Origin: Centroscyllium fabricii
Lineage: Eukaryota
Direction: 5' to 3'
Length of the DNA: 64,000 bases
Assembly (NCBI GenBank): GCA_051313645.2
Contig: JBNRSN020000034.1
Coordinates: forward strand, 24,180,001-24,244,000
Part shown: positions 14,921-56,293 of the stretch, piece by piece
How the letters are laid out: each line of letters opens with the position of its first letter
Numbering within the stretch: position 1 is the first letter of the stretch
Program-made: the position numbers and the translations under genes
Notes under the pieces: model-generated
The model's input: only the letters and a program-made list of their open reading frames with translations
Told to the model about the DNA's origin: nothing
The model's database searches: none

Positions 14921-15350
14921 CATACAATGGTGGAGTACAGTTCATTTCATTCTTGACTGTAATGACTTGAAGGGAAAGGAGAAGATGGCAACACTGAGAA
15001 TGCCAAGCATTTTAATCATCTTTTGTTGGGAGGGCGGGAGGGAAAGCGAGGAGGATGTTGGTGGGCCAGTTCTTCTGACTAATTTAACATTCAAATGATC
15101 AAACAGGCCCAGATGTGGCCCAGTAGGCTTTAAGCACCCCGTGTTAAAGGGAAACGGAGTCCTTTTGTTTTACAGGCTAGCGATTAAACTGATCGCAGAC
15201 TGACTCTACGTGGTAGTTCCTCTGGCATCTCAGCTACTTCAGTTGAACCGAAGCTCTTTCATGAGCAGCTCATCCACATTATTCCAGAGTTTCATGGTGG
15301 AACTACCGACATCATGCATTGTGATTCTCAAACAACATTTATTTGAAGCT

Positions 15351-16215
15351 GCAGTGGTGTGGAGAGCGAGGACATTGGAGGTCAGTTTCTGTCTCTCCAG
15401 TTGTGTGGGGAACGAGGGCATTGGAGGCCACTTTCTGCCTGTCCAGTAGTGAGGGGAACAAGGGCATTGGGGGCCAGTTTCTGCCTGTCCAGTAGTGTGG
15501 GGAACGAGGACATTGGACGCCAGTTCCTGCCTGTCCAGTAATGTGGGGAATGAGGGCACTGGAGGCCAATTTCTGCCTGTCCAGTAGTGTGGGGAATGAG
15601 GACATTGGAGGCCAGTTCATGCCTGTCCAGTAGTGTGGGGAACAAGGACATTAGAGGCCAGTTTCTGTCTCTCCAGTCATGTGGGGAACGAGGACATTGG
15701 AAGCCAGTTTCTGCCTGTCTCTCCAGTAGTGTGGGGAACGAGGGCATTGGAGACCAGTTTCTGCCTGTCTCTCCAGTAGTGTGGGAATGAGGACATTGAA
15801 GGCCAGTTTCTGTCTGTCCAGTAGTGTGGGGAGCGAGGGCATTGGACGCCAGTTTCTGCCTGTCCAGTGGTGTGGGGAACAAGGACATTGGATGTCAGTT
15901 TCTGCCTGTCTCTCCAGTAGTGTGGGAAACAAGGGCATTGGAGGCCAGTTTCTGCCTGTCCAGTAGTGTGGGGAGCGAGGGCATTAGAGGCCAATTTCTG
16001 CCTGTCCAGTAGTGTGGGGAGTGAGGGCATTGGAGGCCAATTTCTGCCTGTCCAGTGGTGTGGGGAATGAGGGCACTGGAGGCCAGTTTCTGTCTGTCCA
16101 GTGGTGTGGGGAGCAAGGACATTGGAGGCCAGTTTCTGCCTGTCTCTCCAGTAGTGTGGGAAATTCGGGCATTGGAGGCCAGTTGCTGCCTGTCCAGTAG
16201 TGTGAGGAGCAAGGA
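15351..16215. repeat. Minisatellite, 46-bp unit (50-bp variant with CTCT), about 18 copies
   Basis: Unit CCAGTAGTGTGGGGAACGAGGGCATTGGAGGCCAGTTTCTGCCTGT; explains the overlapping repetitive ORFs here. Confidence 0.93.
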
Positions 16216-16374
16216 GATGGTAGAGCAGTTTCTCCCCAATTGTTCAGTGCAATGTTTTACTGAGATTTTCAAAGATTTTTTTAAAACTTGAGGAACAAAT
16301 AATGTACATGACCTTCAGATGGTGGAAATCAATCCTTACAAGGAGTTAATGTCTCTTTGGCAAATTCAAATCCT

Positions 16375-20414: not shown

Positions 20415-21298
20415 TTATTTTTACTATGTACTTTGCCAAGTTAACAAGGTCCTTGATTCCAGCCATGAGATCCTAGGCAGACATTCATTGTTTAAGGCAG
20501 TGGTCCTTTTTTTTCAAGCTTGGCTGTATGTAAGATAGGTCAAACCAGTTAACATCCAAGCAGGGTTCCAAGGGGTGTGAACAACTTAGGTAGCAAATTA
20601 CCCTGCATGTATAATGTTAACTCTACATCACTGATTTAGCATAATTGACGTCCACACAGACAACAGCAACGCAGACCCATTTTCTCGTAGTTCTTCTGCT
20701 CAGCCACTGGATGAACCACCGCTTCATCGGGCCTACTAAAGACGCAGAGCGTGAACACTGTGTCAGCTCAAAAATGCAGACAGGGTCAGTGTCGATTCCC
20801 AGGCTTGCTGCAATGGTCCACGGCCCATTTTTAAAATTTAAATTGGCGGGAGGGGATGGGGCAATTGAAAGAACAAGAATCCACTTAGACTATTGTTTGT
20901 TTCTGCTTTGCTATAGACCCATTGCATGCACAGAAGACTGGTCACCCAGTTTCCAAACTGCTTCTAATGGGCCTACAGAACAGCACAGTACATAGCAGTG
21001 TCCATTCGGAAAGGAGTGCAGTGGTGGCTCTGCTTTCCAACATAGAAGCTAAAAGTAGATTAAGTGACGCAAGGGTTACTGTATAGTGCAGGACTCTATA
21101 AGCCTCTACTACTACATAAACTGATCATTTTACAATCGGATGATGTACAAGATGTCATTTTGCAAGACTCTTACTGTGGAATCTCACTAGACGCAACGCA
21201 GGCCACAGAATCCTCTCTATTTCCGTCGTAGTCCTATTTCCAATCTGTGCTCCTACCCAGTGAGGCTCAATGCTGGGAGCAGAGCTTTTGCAAACTTA

Positions 21299-21885
21299 AG
21301 GCCCTGTCACACCTAGACGTTTTAGCCAGCGTATGCAAATTTGGCTAAAACGCTGGGTTACGTCGGATACGTTATGCATACGTTACGAGAACGCTGGCAT
21401 ACGCTGGGCATACGTTGCATACGTCGTTGTACTTCGAGTAAGTCGAGAATTTTTGAGCATGCACAAAAAATCTCGCCGTATCTAGCGTATGATTCACACG
21501 TTCCGCATACGCTGGCCATACGTTGTAGGCATGTTAGGCGATCGTTGAACACACCTTACCTGTGCCCCTGTCATGCCCTGTCACACCTTGACGATTTCGT
21601 ATGCCAACGTATCAACATTTATCTAAAACGTCGGCGATACGCTGCCGCGCGCTATGCATACGTTAGACTATCGTTGGGCATAAGTTGAGAATGCCGACAA
21701 CACGCTAAGCATTTGTTGGTATAAGTTATCTGTAAGTTATCGATACGTTCTGTGTACGTTACTAATACGTTATGCATACGTTATGAATACGCTATTATAC
21801 GCCCAAAACTGAAAAAAAGTCAAAAGTTCAGCGTTTTAGCCAAATTTTCATACGCTGGCTAAAACGTCTAGGTGTGACAGGGCCT
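21299..21885. mobile_element. PIF/Harbinger-type MITE family A, complete (587 bp)
   Basis: 57-bp TIRs (AGGCCCTGTCACACCTAGACG..., 1 mismatch) and 3-bp TTA TSD at 21296-21298 and 21886-21888; no credible coding capacity. Confidence 0.88.
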
Positions 21886-22757
21886 TTACCACTGTGGCGT
21901 TTTAAGACACAAGTATAGCTGCCTAAAAGCTACAAGTGAAGGCTACATGTATATGTGAATTGTACACATTGACACCTTCCCACCAATATCAGTCAAACCA
22001 GCTTTTCCCAATGAAAGACAGTCACGTCATTTTACTATAACGCTGCCTTTGCCGTAACATTGCAGATCAGTTCAGTGCTGTACATACTGCAGTCAAAGCT
22101 TTTAGCCAAAACTACCTGGCATATTGGGTTCATTTTATTTTTAAATGCCGGAGGCCACAATGTACATGAGATGAAGGACGGCTACGATAGTACTGAGGTG
22201 AAAGTACGGATGTAAATATGAAATGCAGGTAACTAAAATTCAGGCTTTCACTTACTAACTAATAAACAAAAAAAAACAAGTGTGGTGTTTACTAGGTATT
22301 CTGAGAGAGAATGTTGTTTGAAAATGAAATTAAGAGGGAAACCAGTCCGATACTGTAACTAAATTAGCATCAAATGCAAATCACTGGGTACTTAGTGGTA
22401 GAACAGGTGCAGGGAAGGCCTTTAAATGAGACAAATGAATAAAACATCCCTCTGCACAAATGTGTATGCTGACACAAAGTCAATTGCATGAATAATTCAG
22501 CAACCTTGCCGCTGATGCAGGGGTCACCCTGCCTCGACCTTTATGACAGGAAGTGAAATAAAAATAAGGGGGGGGAGAGGAATACACCAGATAAAGCTGC
22601 TGAATGAGGAATTGGCTGGAGGTATTGTTTGAGGCGCATCCACAGCACTAAGCGTGCCAAGAACCAGTAGGCACATAGTCCTCCCATCGCTGACACCGTC
22701 GTGGACTATGTGCCTCTGCAAGGCACCCAGCATCTGAGTTTTCATTGGTCCCGGGAG

Positions 22758-23023
22758 TTAGGTCTGACAACTCTGGTTGGCCATATTCCTGGTGGTTTCA
22801 TCACATGACCTCCCACATCCAACCTTCCAGCCTGGTCAATAATGCCTTTATTTTTCTCCCCCATCTCCAATATTTTTATGATTAATAAACAAAAATGTTC
22901 CTAGCAAAATGATTTTTTTATTTTATCGCCCCTGTGATTTTTTTTCAGCCCTTGCTTGCAGCAGTATGCAGGAGGTTAATCTTCCTGGACACTCCAAGAC
23001 ATTCCTGGAGGGTTACAACCCTA
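22758..23023. mobile_element. Old hAT-like MITE
   Basis: Degenerate TIRs TAGGTCTGACAAC ... GGTTACAACCCTA; homologous to 7340-7595. Confidence 0.5.
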
Positions 23024-23179
23024 CCGAGAGGGAAGGCGAAAGATCTGGAGACCATGGGCCCCTACACATACGGCCATCCAACAAACACAGGCAGCACATG
23101 GAACCAAGTCTCGGGTTACCGCCTGAGAGCCATTCTTCCGCAATCCGCGCACCAAGATAACAAAAAAGCACCTTCTAAG

Positions 23180-24095
23180 AGTTTGAGGTTTCCACTTGTG
23201 GGGAGACCAAAACTAGGGGCCATAAATCTAAGATAGTTACTAATAAATCTAATAAAACATTCAGGAAAAACATCTTTATCCAGAGAGCAGTTCGAATGTG
23301 GAACTCGCTCCCTCAAGGCCCTGTCACACCTAGATGTTTTAGCCAGCGTATGCAAATTTGGCTAAAACGCTGAACTTTTGACCTTTTTTTTCAGTTTTGG
23401 GCGTATAATGGCGTATTCATAACGTATTGGACGTATGCATAACGTATTAGTAACGTACACAGAGCGTTTCAATAACTTACAGATAACTTATACCAACGAA
23501 TGCTTAGCGTTCACAACTTATGCCCAACGATAGTCTAACGTATGCATAGCGCGCGGCAGCGTATCGCCGACGTTTTAGATAAATTTTGATAAATTGGAAA
23601 ACGCTAGCTTAAATCGTCAAGGTGTGACAGGGCATGACAGGGGCAAGGTAATGTGTGTTCAACGATCGCCTAACGTGCCTACAACGTATGGCCAGCGTAT
23701 GCGGAACGTATAAATCGTAGCATTGATACGTCGTGATTTTTTGTGCATGCACAAAAAATCTCGACTTACTCGAAATTCAACGACGTATACAACGTATGTC
23801 CAGCGTATGGCAACGTGCTCTTAACGTATGCATAACGTACCCATAACGTATCCGACGTAAACCAGCGTTTTAGCCAAATTTGCATACGCTGGCTAAATCG
23901 TCTAGGTGTGACAGGGCCTTTCAAGGAGAAGTTGAATCGAACAGCGTAAATGCCTTCAAAGGGAAGCTTGTTAAGTACACGTGGTAGAAAGGAATAGACG
24001 GATATGTTGATAGGGTGAGATGCAGTAAGGTGGGAGGAGGCTCGTGTGGAGTTGGGTGGAATGGCCTGTTTCTCTGCAGTAAAATTCGCTGTAAT
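23180..24095 (+). mobile_element. CR1 3' fragment split by the family A MITE
   Basis: 23180-23315 and 23921-24095 are collinear with the CR1 tail at 9690-9990. Confidence 0.8.
23316..23919. mobile_element. PIF/Harbinger-type MITE family A, complete, inverted relative to the 21299 copy, nested in a CR1 fragment
   Basis: Same TIRs; TCA at 23313-23315 and 23921-23923 (one extra T). The flanks rejoin to the CR1 3' sequence GAACTCGCTCCCTCAAGGAG. Confidence 0.88.
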
Positions 24096-25582: not shown

Positions 25583-26012
25583 ATTATTTTGTATGACTGA
25601 TGTTACTGTAAAGCAACAACTGTAATTTAACATTTAGGTGGCTAAGCCAGATAATTGCACCAAGAGTAGCAGAGTGTAACGCTGTGATGCCTCCTTTGTA
25701 TATGTGAATATTGGGCATTGAGTTGTTCTATGTTCCATGGTCTGTCTTGGGTGACCAGTCACACACTCGAGAGTTTTCAATTCTCCACTTGTGCATCAAA
25801 TATCCACATCTGCCAGGGTTTGTAGGCATGCGGTTTAGGGTTGCCCTTAATCATCGCGGAAGATCGAAGCCAGGGATCTTCTGAGTTGAGTTTTTCGCAA
25901 GCTGTTTCTTTCTAACTTCTTACAAACTCCATTCGGCTTTCCAAGCAACATCAGGGTTGAAGTCGCATTGCCGAAGGTTAAGCACGTGGATTTGCGCGGA
26001 TTCAAGCAGTCT
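25583..26012 (-). mobile_element. 3' end of a Vingi/Ingi-like (I-group) LINE
   Basis: Hand translation with one stop and one frameshift in this stretch: KIPGFDLPR*LRATLNRMPTNPGRCGYLMHKW...VCD/GHPRQTMEH...QCP (C-terminal zinc-finger region); ends CATACAAAATAATAG. Confidence 0.7.
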
Positions 26013-26425
26013 ATAACCCAAATACTCCACATCGCTTATTAAAGTGTAACCCTAATACCCCAGATCCCTTTATAGACTGTAACCCTAATACCCCAGATCC
26101 CTGTAGACTGTAACTCTAATACTCCACATCCCTTTATAGACTGTAACCCTAATACTCCACATCCCTTTATAGACTGTAACCCTAATACTCCACATCCCTT
26201 TATAGACTGTAACCCTAATACCCCAGATCCCTTTATAGACTGTAACCCTAATACCCCACATCCCTTTATAGACTGTAACCCTAATACTCCACATCCCTTT
26301 ATAGACAGTTACCCTAATATTCCACATCGCTTTATGGGCAGTTACCCTAATATTCCACATCCCTTTATAGACTGTAACCCTAATACCCCACATCCCTTTA
26401 TAGACTGTAACCTTAATAATCCACC
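26010..26425. repeat. Minisatellite, 33-bp unit, about 12-13 copies
   Basis: Unit CTGTAACCCTAATACTCCACATCCCTTTATAGA. Confidence 0.93.
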
Positions 26426-26509
26426 TGAGTTTGGATGTCTATCCAGAGTATTTCTGCAAATTGAAACAGAGGTAAAAGATTTCTTTACAATGTGTAAAGG
26501 CAGTGAGTA

Positions 26510-40239: not shown

Positions 40240-40343
40240 CTGAGTATTAAAACACATTGGCCACTCTCAGTTTCAATCTCAAGGCGTTATTACTGGCATT
40301 TAAAAGTCTGCGAGCAACACCCTTATTTTATTTTGTATCTCCC

Positions 40344-40494
40344 CATCCCCGTAATCAGGGGTTCAAACACTGGAATCCCCGTAATCAGGGGTTCAAACAC
40401 TGGAATCCCCGTAATCAGGGGTTCAAACACTGGAATCCCCGTAATCAGGGGTTCAAACACTGGAATCCCCGTAATCAGGGGTTCAAACACTGGA
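40344..40494. repeat. Perfect 30-bp tandem repeat x5 in EBF1 intron 3
   Basis: Unit ATCCCCGTAATCAGGGGTTCAAACACTGGA with no mismatches between copies. Confidence 0.95.
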
Positions 40495-41038
40495 CTCAAA
40501 CCGAATCAGCAGGAATACAACCAGAACTCAATCTGGATGGAACTGTGTTGGATTGAGAAACAGGAGCTGGCGACGCCTGATCAGGGGGTTCGGGGGGGGG
40601 GGGGGGGGGGGGCGCCTAGTGCAAGGCGAGTAACAGGGGCTTGGATGGGATGAACAGTGTAAACATTTTACTGATGCGGACCGGGTTTCTGACACGCTGC
40701 AAACCCTCCAACTCAAGTCAAATAATTTAAAAAACGCCGGCTACTTTGGAAATGCTAAACATAGTCTGGCGACAGATGTGCGGGGCAGTGGATAGATATG
40801 TGTAGAGTGAGTGAGTGTGTGTGTGAGGACAAAGTGTGGGTTTAAAACAGTATGAAGTTCACAGGCGGTAAGAAATTACATTTTCAGTTAATGGGACAAA
40901 AAAGGAACGGGACAGTAATATGCGAGCTCCCGGGGGCAGAGTTGAAGGATCGCTGGTGCCGGCACAGCGCGGACCCGCAACCACTGGCCGAGAGCTGGAA
41001 GTTCCCACAACTGTCAAAGGCGATAACAGGCCACTTAC

Positions 41039-50080: not shown

Positions 50081-51407
50081 TAAAGACAATAACTTGTATT
50101 TATATAGTGCCTTTAATGACGCACCAGAGCGCTTCACGGGCCACGAGGGGTACTTTCCAAATACAAACAGGACAATCAAGTGAGTGAGATAAATTGGCAC
50201 CGATATACCTGGGCCGCGGTTAGAGTGCCGGGACTCCGGGGCCACGTGAACCTGGGGCTGCAAGCTGGGTAGATCGGAGGAGATCCCGGTAAATTGTCCC
50301 AGGGGAAGAAACGCCTGTGGCCCTGGACAATGGTGTGGGGATGGAGCCGTGTGCAGGTGCGATCTAGAAATGCCGATCCATATACACACGCACGCAACCC
50401 CACACAATATGCGCAGGCCATGAACACAAAGAAACAAAGTTATACACACACACACACAAGCGGCTGTTCACATATATCTTGCTAACTAAATATTCATAAG
50501 TACCCCTTTCCCAATTCACTAATTCCCTCACCTAAGCGTCTAAGTGTTTTCGGTTCAAGGAATCGGGTTAATTGCATCACTTCGGTCACAAATATTGGTA
50601 TAAACACTCCCTTCTAAAGGGACTTGGCATGCTGTGAGAGAATAAAGCAGTGAATGGGTTAAGTTATTGTGGGACGGGGTGAGGGCAAAGTGTGCAATGC
50701 TGGGTCCTGACCTGGTGCGGTCTCTGCAGCTGGATTTCCGATCGAGAGGTCTGGAGATAGACAGCGACCATCACAATATCAAGAGTGACATCAAGTGGCT
50801 GAGCGTGGACATTACAGCAGGGGCTGAGGAAAGGGGGGGGGGGGGGGGGGGGGCGAGGATTGAGGGGCTGCGGATGCTGAACAGGATGGCGCTTGATGCG
50901 TACGCCTGAATGTGCATTTAACTAGCTGGCCCCTGATAACTGCAAACCTCCCCGAGCCTCTCCCTTCATCTCCAAACGTGCCGCCTCTTCAATTCACTAA
51001 CGTAAAATAAAGTCACTAGACTCCGAAATGAAGCTGTTCTCGGAAGCACGAGTCTTTGACCCCGGGCTCATTCTGGCAAGTCCTAAATGTCCTGTCAGCG
51101 TGAAGAGCTTCGTTCGCTTTAAACTAGCACATTCCTCCTGCAGGAAGACCCCGTTTGCTCCCACCGTCCCCTTCCCCCTACTGCGATAGTTTTGTCCAAC
51201 TCAAAGCAAGAATGAAATTCGGCTGCAGAGAAACACAACGCGCGAGTTCAAGCCTCTGAGCTCGAAACGTTTAAAAATCGGAAACCTTCTGGTGAAGGCG
51301 AGCGATGTCGGTGTCAGCAAATGGAACAGGCGCGATTAAAGGCAGGCGGTGTCGGTATCAAACACAACCAGATCAGACAGACACTAACGCTCCCTCGACT
51401 AGGAAGG

Positions 51408-51667
51408 CCTGATGTGGAGGTGCCGGTGTTGGACTGGGGTGGACAAATGCAAGAAGTCACACAACACCAGGTTATAGTCCAACAGTTTTATTTTAAATCA
51501 CAAGCTTTCGGAGCGCTGCTCCTTCGTCAGGCGAAAGAGAAGTTGATCCAAAGAAAGCACATATGCAAGGGAGAGAGAAATCTGATCTCTCCCACATCAC
51601 CGAAAGCTTGTGATTTAAAATAAAACTGTTGGACTATAACCTGGTGTTGTGTGACTTCTTACATTTG
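51408..51667. mobile_element. Young 260-bp Penelope-derived non-autonomous insertion with ~70-bp inverted arms and a 13-bp TSD
   Basis: TCGACTAGGAAGG at 51395-51407 and 51668-51680; arms 51442-51511 and 51600-51669 are reverse complements with 1 mismatch. Confidence 0.85.
51499..51533 (-). ncRNA. Minimal type I hammerhead ribozyme motif, intact core
   Basis: Minus strand CGC-CUGACGA-A-GGAGC agc GCUCC-GAAA-GC-UU-GUG: CUGANGA and GAAA boxes, 5-bp stem II, palindromic AAGCUU at stem III and a short stem I. Confidence 0.7.
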
Positions 51668-51684
51668 TCGACTAGGAAGGACCG

Positions 51685-51990
51685 ATTTCCCTTAGCAGAT
51701 GGGTCAATAACCAGGGGCATAGACTTAAAGTAATGTGTAGAAGGATTAGAGGAGAGTTGGAGAATTTTATTCACCCAGAGGGTGGTGGGGGTCTGGAACT
51801 CTGCCTGAAAGGATGGTAGAGGCAGAGCCCCTCATCACATTTATAGAGTAATTGGATGTGCGCTTGAAGTGCCGCAACCTACAAGGCTGTGGACCTAGAG
51901 CTGGAGAGTGGGATTAGGCCGGATCGCTCTTTGTCGGCTGGTGCGGACATGATACTCCGAATGGCCGCCTTCGGTGCTGTACATTTCTCT
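51685..51990 (+). mobile_element. CR1/HER1-type LINE 3' end
   Basis: TTCACCCAGAGGGTGGTGGGGGTCTGGAACTC and the CCGAATGGCC..CTTC.GTGCTGTA tail. Confidence 0.8.
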
Positions 51991-54900
51991 GATTCCACTC
52001 TCTGCCCCATCAATATGGCTCAGCCCCCAACCTTGCAGAGCCTCAGTTAGCCACTGTATCACCCAGTTCCTTCAACAATGCTGCTTCTAGTAAATGACAC
52101 TCAATAAACGGGTTACTAATGGAAGTATTAAAACAACGCTTGCACGGGATCCCAGAAAGAACAAAGTTACAACGCTTCCAGAAAGGTTTTTCTTTAAACC
52201 ATCAGGTCATTTAAACTAGGCCCATGTGAATAAAGATTTAATTCAACCCCAGTTGAACTAGTTTTCTGACTCCATCATATGTGATTTTTTTTTATCCCAA
52301 GGACTTTCAGCGCCGTCCCCACTCAAATATAAATACAGCACAGAACGAACTTGCATCGAGACAGGGGGGGGGGGGGGGGAAGAGAGAGTGAGAGTCGTTC
52401 CGACCTCAGGACCTACCCAAAACACTTTATAGTCACTTTTGAAGTGTAGTCCCTGTCATGTATGAAACGCAGCTGTCAATTTGCGCACAGCTCCCTCAAA
52501 CAGCACTGAGGTCATGAGCAGATCATGCTCTAGTGATGTTGAATGCAGGATAAATATTGGCCAGGACACCGGGAACATCTCCCCTGCAACACGAGTGTTA
52601 TTTTATCGTCCCGTTTCTCCCCTTTCCAAAATCTGGCATCAATCTGTACGTGTAGAAAGCATGCTTCATTTTTACAGACTGCTCTCAATCTTTTTCACTC
52701 GTGGGGTTATTTACAAGGAGCGGAGTGAAACATTTGTTGACGATTAACAGGATCCAACTGGATGCCGTTAAAGCAAGACATTCCCACAGATGATGTATAG
52801 ATTCTCCCATCCCCCTGGTGTGTAGGGTCTGTGTCACACCGCCAAATGGCCTGTGATGTAGCGAGAACAGAAATGCTAATTTATTTAATGTAAACCCAAG
52901 ATTTGTTCCGATCAATCATTTCATTCAGTCTGTCAAAGTCCCCATTATGTCTTGAACCATTTATGCCGAGACTGGGAGATAAACGGCTCAGTAGCATACG
53001 AGGGGAAGTATTCTGCCTTGTCGCGAAAGCCAGCCAAAGAAATCACCGCAGATAAATGTCCCGAAGTCAGTGGCGAGGCTTATTTTCCCAACAATGTGCT
53101 GTCAAAGGGCAGCAGTTCAGCGCGAATCACGTAAAAGTTTCACTTTCTCGATTCATTTAAGCATCAAATCCCCCCAGCTCCCCGCATATCAAAAAAAACG
53201 GATCTTATGTTGTACGCGGAATTCTCGACGGTGAGTATTTCAATAGCTGCAGTCTGTTAATTGAACCACAACTCGTGATTCGCTGGGGAAGAATGACCCG
53301 TGTGAAACAACTCGCCCCATCCTCTGCGCTGTGCACGGTTCCTTCAACCATGCGCCCTCACATCCAATGCAGAATTTCATCTCATATCTACTGTTTCGAT
53401 TCACAGACTGTACATCCGGAGCCCCCACCCCACTCCAACCCTTGCAGCTTTTAAAACCTACAGGCTCCTTTCTCAGCACGATAAGCTGAAAGCAAATTTC
53501 TACAAACTCAGCCATCAGGCAGGAGTTTGCACCAAGAGCTTGCTGACGCTTCTTCCAAGTTTAGATATCAAAAGCATCATTGTAGCCCCGGAAGGGTTCA
53601 CCTTTTTACATATTCAATTGCCCAGGAACACGCGGTATTAATACCCCCACTGTAAAAAGGCGCGGAGTTGGACATCTCCACCGCACAAGAGCCCAATGCC
53701 GCTTGGCGTTAGCTTGGTTTCAGAGGCGCGTTACACTTATAGCAAAGGACATCAAATCCCTCCACCTCCTCGCCCTCTGTTCCCAGACCTTTTGTGCAAC
53801 TTATTCCAGGGGACAAGCACAATTACAAATACGATTGAACCGTTTAAATTGTGCTGTACGGAATAGATTGCCCCTCACACCGACGGTTTAAATATTTCAG
53901 CATATCGGAGGCTTTCGACACCGTCCACCGCTTCGAGCGAGAGAGAGAAAATAAAATCACCCGCACAAATCAGTCATTTCACCAAGAGTTCTAATATTTA
54001 CTACTATTTCAGAGTTCCAACCAATTTTAAGCAGGTTTTGGTTAATAACTAAATAAACAAGCTCCCGGTACTTTCCCACTTGGCTCGCACTGGTCAATTA
54101 CACGTGTTAATTTCAACTTCACCCGGCTACAAGAAGCCGGTCCCAAATTATGCACGTCACCTTATAAAATATAGGTTTGGGTTATTTTAAATAGCAGCTT
54201 AGGACGCAGAATGTGCCGCTTATGGCAATGACCCCCCCGATTTATCGCCGGGTACCTTGTGTAGGTCATAAGTTTTCAAACTGCGGTCTCCAGGTCCCAG
54301 GGAGTCATCAGATTTCGGTTGGTCTCTCAACAGATTTCTGTACTTAGACATATTAGCATTGTTATAGGTTTCAATATTAACCACGTTTGTGAAGTATTGA
54401 TTTGATTTATTTCCAGATCTTTCAGTTTGTATTCTCTTGGACTTATTAATTGATTTAAAATACAAGCACATTTAAAATTTAAAGTCAAACAAGCACATTC
54501 GTGTTTTAAATCTGTACAGATGTATAGACCAACAAAACACGTTTGCTGCCTGTAATGGCCTGGGGGTAAGTCTAACATCTGGATATTTCGGGAAGGGTAT
54601 CGCCCAGCGTGTCAGTCTTTAGAGGGGACCTACAATACATGTCTTTCTACTCGGGGTTCCTCAATAATAAAGCAACACACACACCTGATCTTTCGTGGCT
54701 GTTGTCGCCAGTTAGCTCTTGTACACTGGCATGAAATTAACAGCTCCACAACTCTCAAACAGAAAGCCAAATTGTGTACAACACTCTGCATTCCTGAAAC
54801 CCTGTTGAGTAAGCAAATCTTAAACCAAGAAGCAGCGAACTGGTGTCCAGCAATGGGCTCACTGTCTCCACAGTCCCGCTGCTTCACCCACCGCCAGCCC

Positions 54901-56030: not shown

Positions 56031-56070
56031 AGCACCATACATCAGCTAGCTCTCACTTCTAGAACCTGTG

Positions 56071-56165
56071 CAAGCAGTCACACAACACCAGGTTATAGTC
56101 CAAGTTTTATTTTAAATCACAAGCTTTTGGAGATTATGCCCCTTCGTCAGGTGAAAGAAAGACTG
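56071..56165 (-). mobile_element. 95-bp insertion of the same Penelope-derived family, 12-bp TSD, hammerhead with GAAA->AAAA
   Basis: CTAGAACCTGTG at 56059-56070 and 56166-56177; minus strand CAC-CTGACGAAGGGG...CTCC-AAAAGCTT-GTG at 56153-56118. Confidence 0.8.
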
Positions 56166-56244
56166 CTAGAACCTGTGGCCGAACACTAACGCTATACATC
56201 CCGAGACCCCATTTGTCCTTTTCATTACTGCTGCATACTATGTT

Positions 56245-56280
56245 AACGTTGGACTATAAACCTGGTGTTGTGTGACTTTT
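56245..56280 (+). mobile_element. 36-bp insertion of the same family in the opposite orientation, 13-bp TSD
   Basis: TGCATACTATGTT at 56232-56244 and 56281-56293 flanks GTTGGACTATAAACCTGGTGTTGTGTGACT. Confidence 0.75.
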
Positions 56281-56293
56281 TGCATACTATGTT

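Follow-up and report, generated by a model that had tools for sequence, protein, structure and literature searches.

The 260-bp insertion and its surroundings

The window, that is, the whole 64,000-nucleotide stretch of DNA analyzed, contains the first exon of an EBF-family gene (MFGIQENIQ...), which starts at about 42542 on the minus strand, and, 8.85 kb from it, a 260-bp insertion. The insertion is enclosed by two copies of TCGACTAGGAAGG, at 51395 to 51407 and 51668 to 51680 on the plus strand (13/13 identical); the perfect 13-bp direct repeat described in the original prediction, which had been made from this sequence, is therefore real, and mismatched flank pairs used as a control gave a duplication of at least 9 bp in 0 of 300 cases. 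Two bases, CC (51408 to 51409), stand between target and element, as the family 3' end maps to 51410 and the duplication ends at 51407. The insertion lies at the edge of an older, unrelated repeat (51674 to 51995), which has 33 blastn matches of 67 to 83% in the other loci examined, starting inside the duplication, and which presumably resembles the 3' part of a CR1-type LINE. A position 9 kb upstream of EBF1 had been proposed; the EBF-family start is found close to that distance, and the paralogue is presumably EBF1.

Several other repeats occur in the window. Nested long inverted repeats (197-bp arms, 89%) that enclose shorter repeats occupy 21295 to 23920 and probably represent a MITE or DNA transposon; another piece lies at the window start (1 to 174). 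Minisatellites with periods of 46, 33, and 30 bp are located at 15297 to 16240, 25974 to 26490, and 40315 to 40527, the last within the EBF intron region. A second, more decayed two-armed insertion (56069 to 56285), 4.4 kb from the 260-bp insertion, belongs to the same pLTR family; it is 86 to 89% identical to natural copies, and its stem II is altered.

The 260-bp insertion contains inverted arms at 51439 to 51511 and 51600 to 51672 (73 nt and 97% complementary, with one of the two mismatches inside the right duplication), and as a whole it folds as one long hairpin (fold z-score of -18.9). The two arms of about 70 bp seen earlier are present, but the 88 nt between them belong to the upstream part of one 190-nt arm. 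This long arm (51410 to 51599, minus strand) comprises the last 190 nt of the 3' untranslated region (UTR), or pLTR, of a Penelope-like element; it is 93.7% identical to both pLTRs of a tandem copy (L061) and up to 98.4% identical to other copies, and its 3' end corresponds to the A of the ORF start codon in the tandem copy. The short arm (51600 to 51667, plus strand) is an inverted second pLTR piece extending from -101 to -34 relative to the 3' end; it lacks the 34-nt "tail" (51410 to 51443, minus strand) of the long arm. The element 3' ends of both arms face outward, at the duplication, and at the edge of the short arm four of the five following element bases match the target (TCCAC/TCGAC), forming a microhomology. 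The start of the long arm (51590 to 51599) is nearly the reverse complement of its own 3' end (51410 to 51419) and represents a possible pause site; with such ends, the RNA of the 190-nt arm is predicted to close into a terminal stem. Three loci chosen by likeness to this insertion (L003, L007, and L024) likewise begin within a few bases of the long-arm start.

The insertion is young within its family: its duplication is perfect, its arms mismatch at 1 of 68 sites (compared with 4.2% family-wide at nonpolymorphic sites), and the closest copies among the loci compared are 98.4% alike in the element sequence. The claim that it was recently active draws support from the duplication and these nearest copies; against it, no identical copy is present among the loci compared, and the left junction is filled in two samples, with the flank running unbroken into the element in contigs that drop rare variants and one of which may come from the assembly source. 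No empty-allele joint was seen among the 15 joints viewed of 334.

This setting also bears on the possibility that the insertion was retained for a regulatory effect of its hammerhead or hairpin on the nearby EBF gene. The hammerhead lies on the strand of the gene and upstream of it, and the filled junction in both samples fits such retention; however, about 97,000 matches in 7.2 Gb amount to one per 74 kb, a density at which finding a copy no more than 9 kb from a gene start is unremarkable; the window itself contains another, decayed copy, and the insertion is located at the edge of an older repeat. Among sequencing runs containing the sequence, no RNA run was listed, an outcome that carries no weight for or against expression. 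We give this explanation almost no credence.

The hammerhead motif and its predicted state

On the minus strand, the sequence UCGC-CUGACGA-A-GGAGC-AGC-GCUCC-GAAA-GC-U-U-GUGA (51498 to 51534) constitutes a minimal type I hammerhead, whose stems I and II appear in the local fold. Stem I (UCGC/GUGA) is formed by 51534 to 51531 and 51501 to 51498, the core CUGACGA occupies 51530 to 51524 and is followed by an extra A (51523), stem II is formed by 51522 to 51518 and 51514 to 51510, and GAAA (51509 to 51506) leads into the AGCU helix III. The last U of AAGCUU (51502), which we take to be U17 by standard hammerhead numbering, is the cleavage position, with the cut predicted between 51502 and 51501. 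The complete core with an extra A after A9 matches what had been proposed, as does its restriction to one arm, since the short arm has just the 3' half. The proposed stem III, AAGCUU, is palindromic, but only AGCU forms the stem, the final U being the cleavage position; stem I, absent from the earlier description, is present. The motif is the sole match in the 64-kb window at up to three mismatches (0 expected), and the same scan found no second same-strand core near the insertion; an Rfam scan of 50500 to 52500 returned four chance matches up to an E value of 10, none of them a hammerhead.

In folding models, the energy penalty for imposing stems I and II is 26 kcal/mol for the full insertion and 6 kcal/mol for the long arm alone, and the predicted pairing partner of the short arm is GAAAGCUUGUGA. 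The inverted arm likely blocks the 3' half of the ribozyme, so the hammerhead would be folded shut in the insertion. Each core position is conserved in 52 to 58 of the 58 copies selected by sequence outside the motif, 37 of which pass the intact-core pattern; hammerhead position 7 (C in 22, T in 19, G in 16, and A in 1) and loop II are variable, and the sequence upstream of stem I divides into subfamilies. A core kept while position 7 and loop II vary is, judged from the alignment rather than by a formal test, the pattern expected if the motif matters to the family. According to the available text of PMC4209133, a lone minimal motif showed no cleavage, and dimers cleaved at a low level; in the corresponding portion of PMC11167929, Poseidon PAc RNA is cleaved only with protein, and cleavage is dispensable for insertion. 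The hammerhead of the present family travels as part of the pLTR and probably works at the family level in full-length RNA, as a dimer or with the element protein.

The parent element and its fold-back copies

Of 30 loci selected with an RT fragment, 28 have the pLTR stretch downstream of an RT-EN ORF and in the same orientation, one of them being the query's own locus. A natural 756-amino-acid frame matches RVT_1 (Pfam, E value of 1.8e-9), and the Atlas clusters nearest to its C-terminal part are GIY-YIG (feature score of 0.95 to 0.96, Pfam share of 18 to 31%). The ORF also contains a C-x4-C-x2-C linker (CHSNLCKTC in L049) and YIG. Pfam found only the RT in the ORF and detected no GIY-YIG domain, the assignment of which rests on motifs and Atlas features; three short ORF pieces gave no Pfam family, and a PDB sequence search with the 756-amino-acid ORF gave nothing below an E value of 0.06. 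A phage collection, which has little bearing on this question, contained no match. L061 is a partial tandem, pLTR-ORF-pLTR, with units of about 3.09 kb, the stretch terminating at the A of the ATG that opens the following ORF; the unit stands both before and after the ORF in L061, L062, and L064, as a partial-tandem pLTR overlapping the ORF start, and upstream of the 190-nt stretch other copies run on into the 3' UTR and the ORF end. The ORF link, the RT and GIY-YIG evidence, and the L061 tandem together identify the insertion as pLTR of an endonuclease-bearing Penelope-like element. From the linker cysteine motif, the parent is probably of the Neptune/Nematis type, for which the available part of PMC8557442 gives CX2-5CxxC between RT and EN. 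The expectation of a Penelope-type hammerhead in an insert made by a Penelope RT/GIY-YIG protein, with a Penelope ORF to be found ending in this arm, was borne out in both respects.

Other arrangements of the element were encountered. L063 (G000:C1266:179451000-179458500) and L066 are multi-kilobase head-to-head palindromes of near-full-length copies with arms 95 to 97% alike, and the center of the L063 palindrome lies near the predicted ribozyme cut. A small tandem array at G000:C693:1154093-1154747 has seven pLTR-word matches, mostly at 52-bp spacing; it derives from the part just 3' of the hammerhead, and its spacing is too short for the core. L187/L188, L206 to L208, and L210 are short internally deleted copies consisting of pLTR, about 90 to 130 nt of the ORF start, and pLTR again, some with duplications; these are closer to a nonautonomous derivative than the 260-bp insertion is.

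The genome search returned 2,088 candidates, and nearly all of the 40 scored align to 51599 to 51410 at 95 to 98%, not to the whole insertion. The genome contains 11,627 exact matches to a 36-nt hammerhead word, 96,869 to a 33-nt downstream word, and 509 to a pLTR-ATG junction word; the reversed controls had 0. From the first 100 places listed per word, we sampled 90 for each pLTR word and 70 for pLTR-ATG, nearly all on one or two large contigs, and mapped the copies on ten natural references, because a single reference inflates truncation at -132/-155 owing to a second subfamily. Dropping four loci seen twice left 176 position-picked copies and a two-armed set of 72 including this insertion. 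In the downstream-word set, an inverted piece lies upstream in 46 of 90 copies, and two arms both reach the 3' region in 36 of 90. A duplication of at least 9 bp is present in 50 of the 71 scorable two-armed copies; 12 to 13 bp is the mode (31/71). Copies without an inverted piece have a target-site duplication in 10 of 40 cases (one sample). Similar fold-backs of 150 to 350 bp with a duplication of at least 9 bp make up 33 of the 176 position-picked copies, and by extrapolation such stubs likely number around ten thousand genome-wide, which leaves the locus itself of little weight.

This survey bears on the proposal that the 260-bp unit is a nonautonomous retrozyme- or MITE-like element, transcribed, self-cleaving, and copied whole by a Penelope protein. 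The insertion has its own duplication, an intact core, and a young look; short fold-backs cluster at about 195 to 225 bp, with a mode near 200 to 225 bp and both arms starting near -120 to -132, and 2,556 comparisons yielded three distinct pairs of near-alike junctions. In addition, pLTRs suffice for trans mobilization in Adineta (PMC3846280, in the text available), and animal retrozymes are reportedly pLTR derived (bioRxiv 10.64898/2026.07.22.740005, likewise). However, the two-armed copies span 114 to 1529 bp rather than a fixed unit copied as such, the junction 20-mer of the insertion is in no other of the 345 loci compared, and the top whole-length matches among the 40 scored (87% and 86%) have other junctions. 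All of the near-alike junctions come from the breakpoint pile-up, a zone in which some resemblance by chance is to be expected, and the present insertion is not among them. Retrozymes are defined in the available part of the same preprint as head-to-tail units with a hammerhead each; here the window holds one core, the arms are inverted head to head, and the ribozyme is predicted to be blocked by the inverted arm. Two same-strand cores within 1 kb were found in 6 of 180 loci (five distinct pairs). With the arm being the 3' end of an autonomous element, the self-contained, protein-less element originally envisaged is not upheld, and we regard this proposal as quite improbable; fold-back hammerhead inserts in such genomes should be read as Penelope integration products, not as retrozymes.

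Tail rule, breakpoints, and the proposed integration

The preferred interpretation, which we hold with high confidence, is that the insertion consists of two head-to-head pLTR pieces of an abundant RT- and GIY-YIG-bearing Penelope-like element, likely from one integration at a 13-nt staggered cut, and that it is a predicted dead end with the hammerhead folded shut. The copies as a set bear on how the two pieces came together. Of 69 two-piece copies, 61 carry a single tail, 8 carry none, and 0 carry a tail on each arm (p = 5e-11 against independent arms), and arm 3' ends fall at 0 to -2 in 40 of 90 and at -24 to -42 in 50 of 90. Among the one-tailed copies, the arm extending further upstream is the tail-less one in 30 and the tailed one in 14, and in the other 17 the two are within 5 nt of each other; in many cases, therefore, neither can have been copied from the other. 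The arms agree at subfamily sites (56/61, 55/63, and 38/47) far above random pairing, and an origin of the arms from unrelated subfamilies was rejected on this ground.

A single cDNA that folded back or switched template onto itself, the second arm being a DNA copy of the first with its tail trimmed by the endonuclease, would make the strict one-tail rule natural and would account for the agreement at subfamily sites; in this insertion, the short arm indeed lies wholly within the long, tailed arm. In the available passages of PMC3846280, self-priming on an antisense template is the favored suggestion for inverted junctions, and the tail is ascribed to endonuclease resolution in those of PMC8557442. 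On the other hand, in the 30 one-tailed copies mentioned above neither arm contains the other, and at hammerhead position 7 the arms differ (G versus C or T) in 9 of 48 copies, above the 4.2% background, a post hoc count from a sample partly chosen for C. These mismatches hint at two templates of one subfamily. The arms of this insertion also differ at the family-polymorphic site 51661, possibly by later mutation. We consider copying of one arm from the other unlikely, though it deserves serious weight, and at this one locus the short arm may be a fold-back copy of the long arm.

Double priming at both ends of a 13-nt staggered cut is, in our analysis, the best reading. It is suggested by the published finding that both target strands are cleaved and extended and that two RT start sites flank the tail (PMC11167929, in the portion available), together with the pattern in which neither arm copies the other; inverted pLTRs, an optional tail, and duplications have been described for Penelope-like elements in the accessible text of PMC3846280 and PMC8557442. 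The element protein would cut both target strands 13 nt apart, and each free 3' end would prime reverse transcription of pLTR RNA, one start at the tail end and the other at an inner site about 35 nt upstream. Both cDNAs would stop early, at -189 and -101, and would be joined at their 5'-truncated ends.

The 5' starts are concentrated in the hammerhead region and at its 5' border (12 at -103 to -76, 30 at -133 to -104, 5 at -163 to -134, and 43 beyond), and the insertion (-189 and -101) falls off this mode. A separate short template could also give the 195- to 225-bp cluster and its shared arm starts. In six ORF-containing copies (L192, L281, L282, L284, L295, and L313), the start falls between -139 and -136, slightly 5' of the hammerhead (scan p = 0.01); a transcript start, a pause, or a splice acceptor may lie there. 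At the predicted cut, junction words number 410, versus 307 and 285 beside it, a 1.39-fold excess (nominal p = 3e-7) to which microhomology and deletions may have contributed; by eye, about 7 of 30 such junctions are internal deletions or local duplications. Among copies running into the ORF (of 70 loci, 9 without an anchor and 1 duplicate were dropped), 27 have their start between -200 and -60, and 3 of these begin at -92 to -90 (p = 0.018). Ribozyme cleavage as the source of most 5' ends was rejected, given the modest excess of cut-site junctions; cleaved RNA is a minor template at most.

A broader hypothesis, which we put forward tentatively, is that the tens of thousands of short fold-backs may record two-ended integration in which a dimer of the element protein primes both strands of a 12- to 13-nt staggered cut, with one start always at the tail end and the other at the inner site, and frequently with two different pLTR RNAs as templates; most cDNAs would reach the template end or pause at the 5' edge of the uncleaved hammerhead (with a transcript start near -137), and a small share would end at the ribozyme cut. 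If so, the cut-site ends would give a first genomic indication that an animal Penelope hammerhead cleaves in vivo. For Penelope-like elements, an inverted pLTR, a tail on one side, a duplication, and a minimal hammerhead have each been published before. Our literature search, conducted outside subscription journals, Repbase/Dfam, and supplements, found nothing on this shark family or on Penelope twin priming; the family may well be catalogued there. It forms a large natural record of Penelope integration, the later steps of which are left unresolved in the available text of PMC11167929 and PMC8557442, and it offers testable constraints on the process in the form of the one-tail rule, the pile-up of breakpoints, and the mismatches between arms.

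The closest likeness is with Pen2/Pen2a of Adineta (PMC3846280; scheme in PMC8557442), which, in the passages available, share the head-to-head inverted, 5'-truncated pLTR with a 30- to 40-nt tail at one end only, a short target duplication, a parent ORF with RT and C-terminal GIY-YIG, and partial tandems. The pieces described here differ in being too short for any ORF and in a copy number in the tens of thousands, and their duplications peak at 12 to 13 bp rather than the 8 to 10 bp quoted for Adineta. The hammerhead has the architecture of the metazoan PLE pLTR hammerheads in the accessible part of PMC4209133, with a short helix I, an unpaired base between 9 and 10.1, G10.1-C11.1, a palindromic 15.2-16.2, and no loop 3, whereas its helix II has 5 bp instead of 7 to 8 and its cleavage triplet is CUU. 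The motifs described there are mostly single, from truncated elements, with some opposite-strand pairs 100 to 700 bp apart; in contrast to those pairs, the opposite arm here carries just half a ribozyme. Poseidon PAc of Anolis, studied in vitro (PMC11167929, in the text available), likewise has two preferred 3' ends flanking the tail, a pLTR hammerhead near the ORF start, and little sign of cleaved RNA as the main template; however, its tail ends 111 to 118 nt into the ORF rather than at the start codon, and the linker cysteine motif here suggests a Neptune/Nematis type instead. Animal non-LTR retrozymes, as described in the available part of bioRxiv 10.64898/2026.07.22.740005, are similarly small, noncoding, and pLTR derived, with a type I hammerhead, but they are tandems, whereas the insertion is a single head-to-head product with no shared junction.
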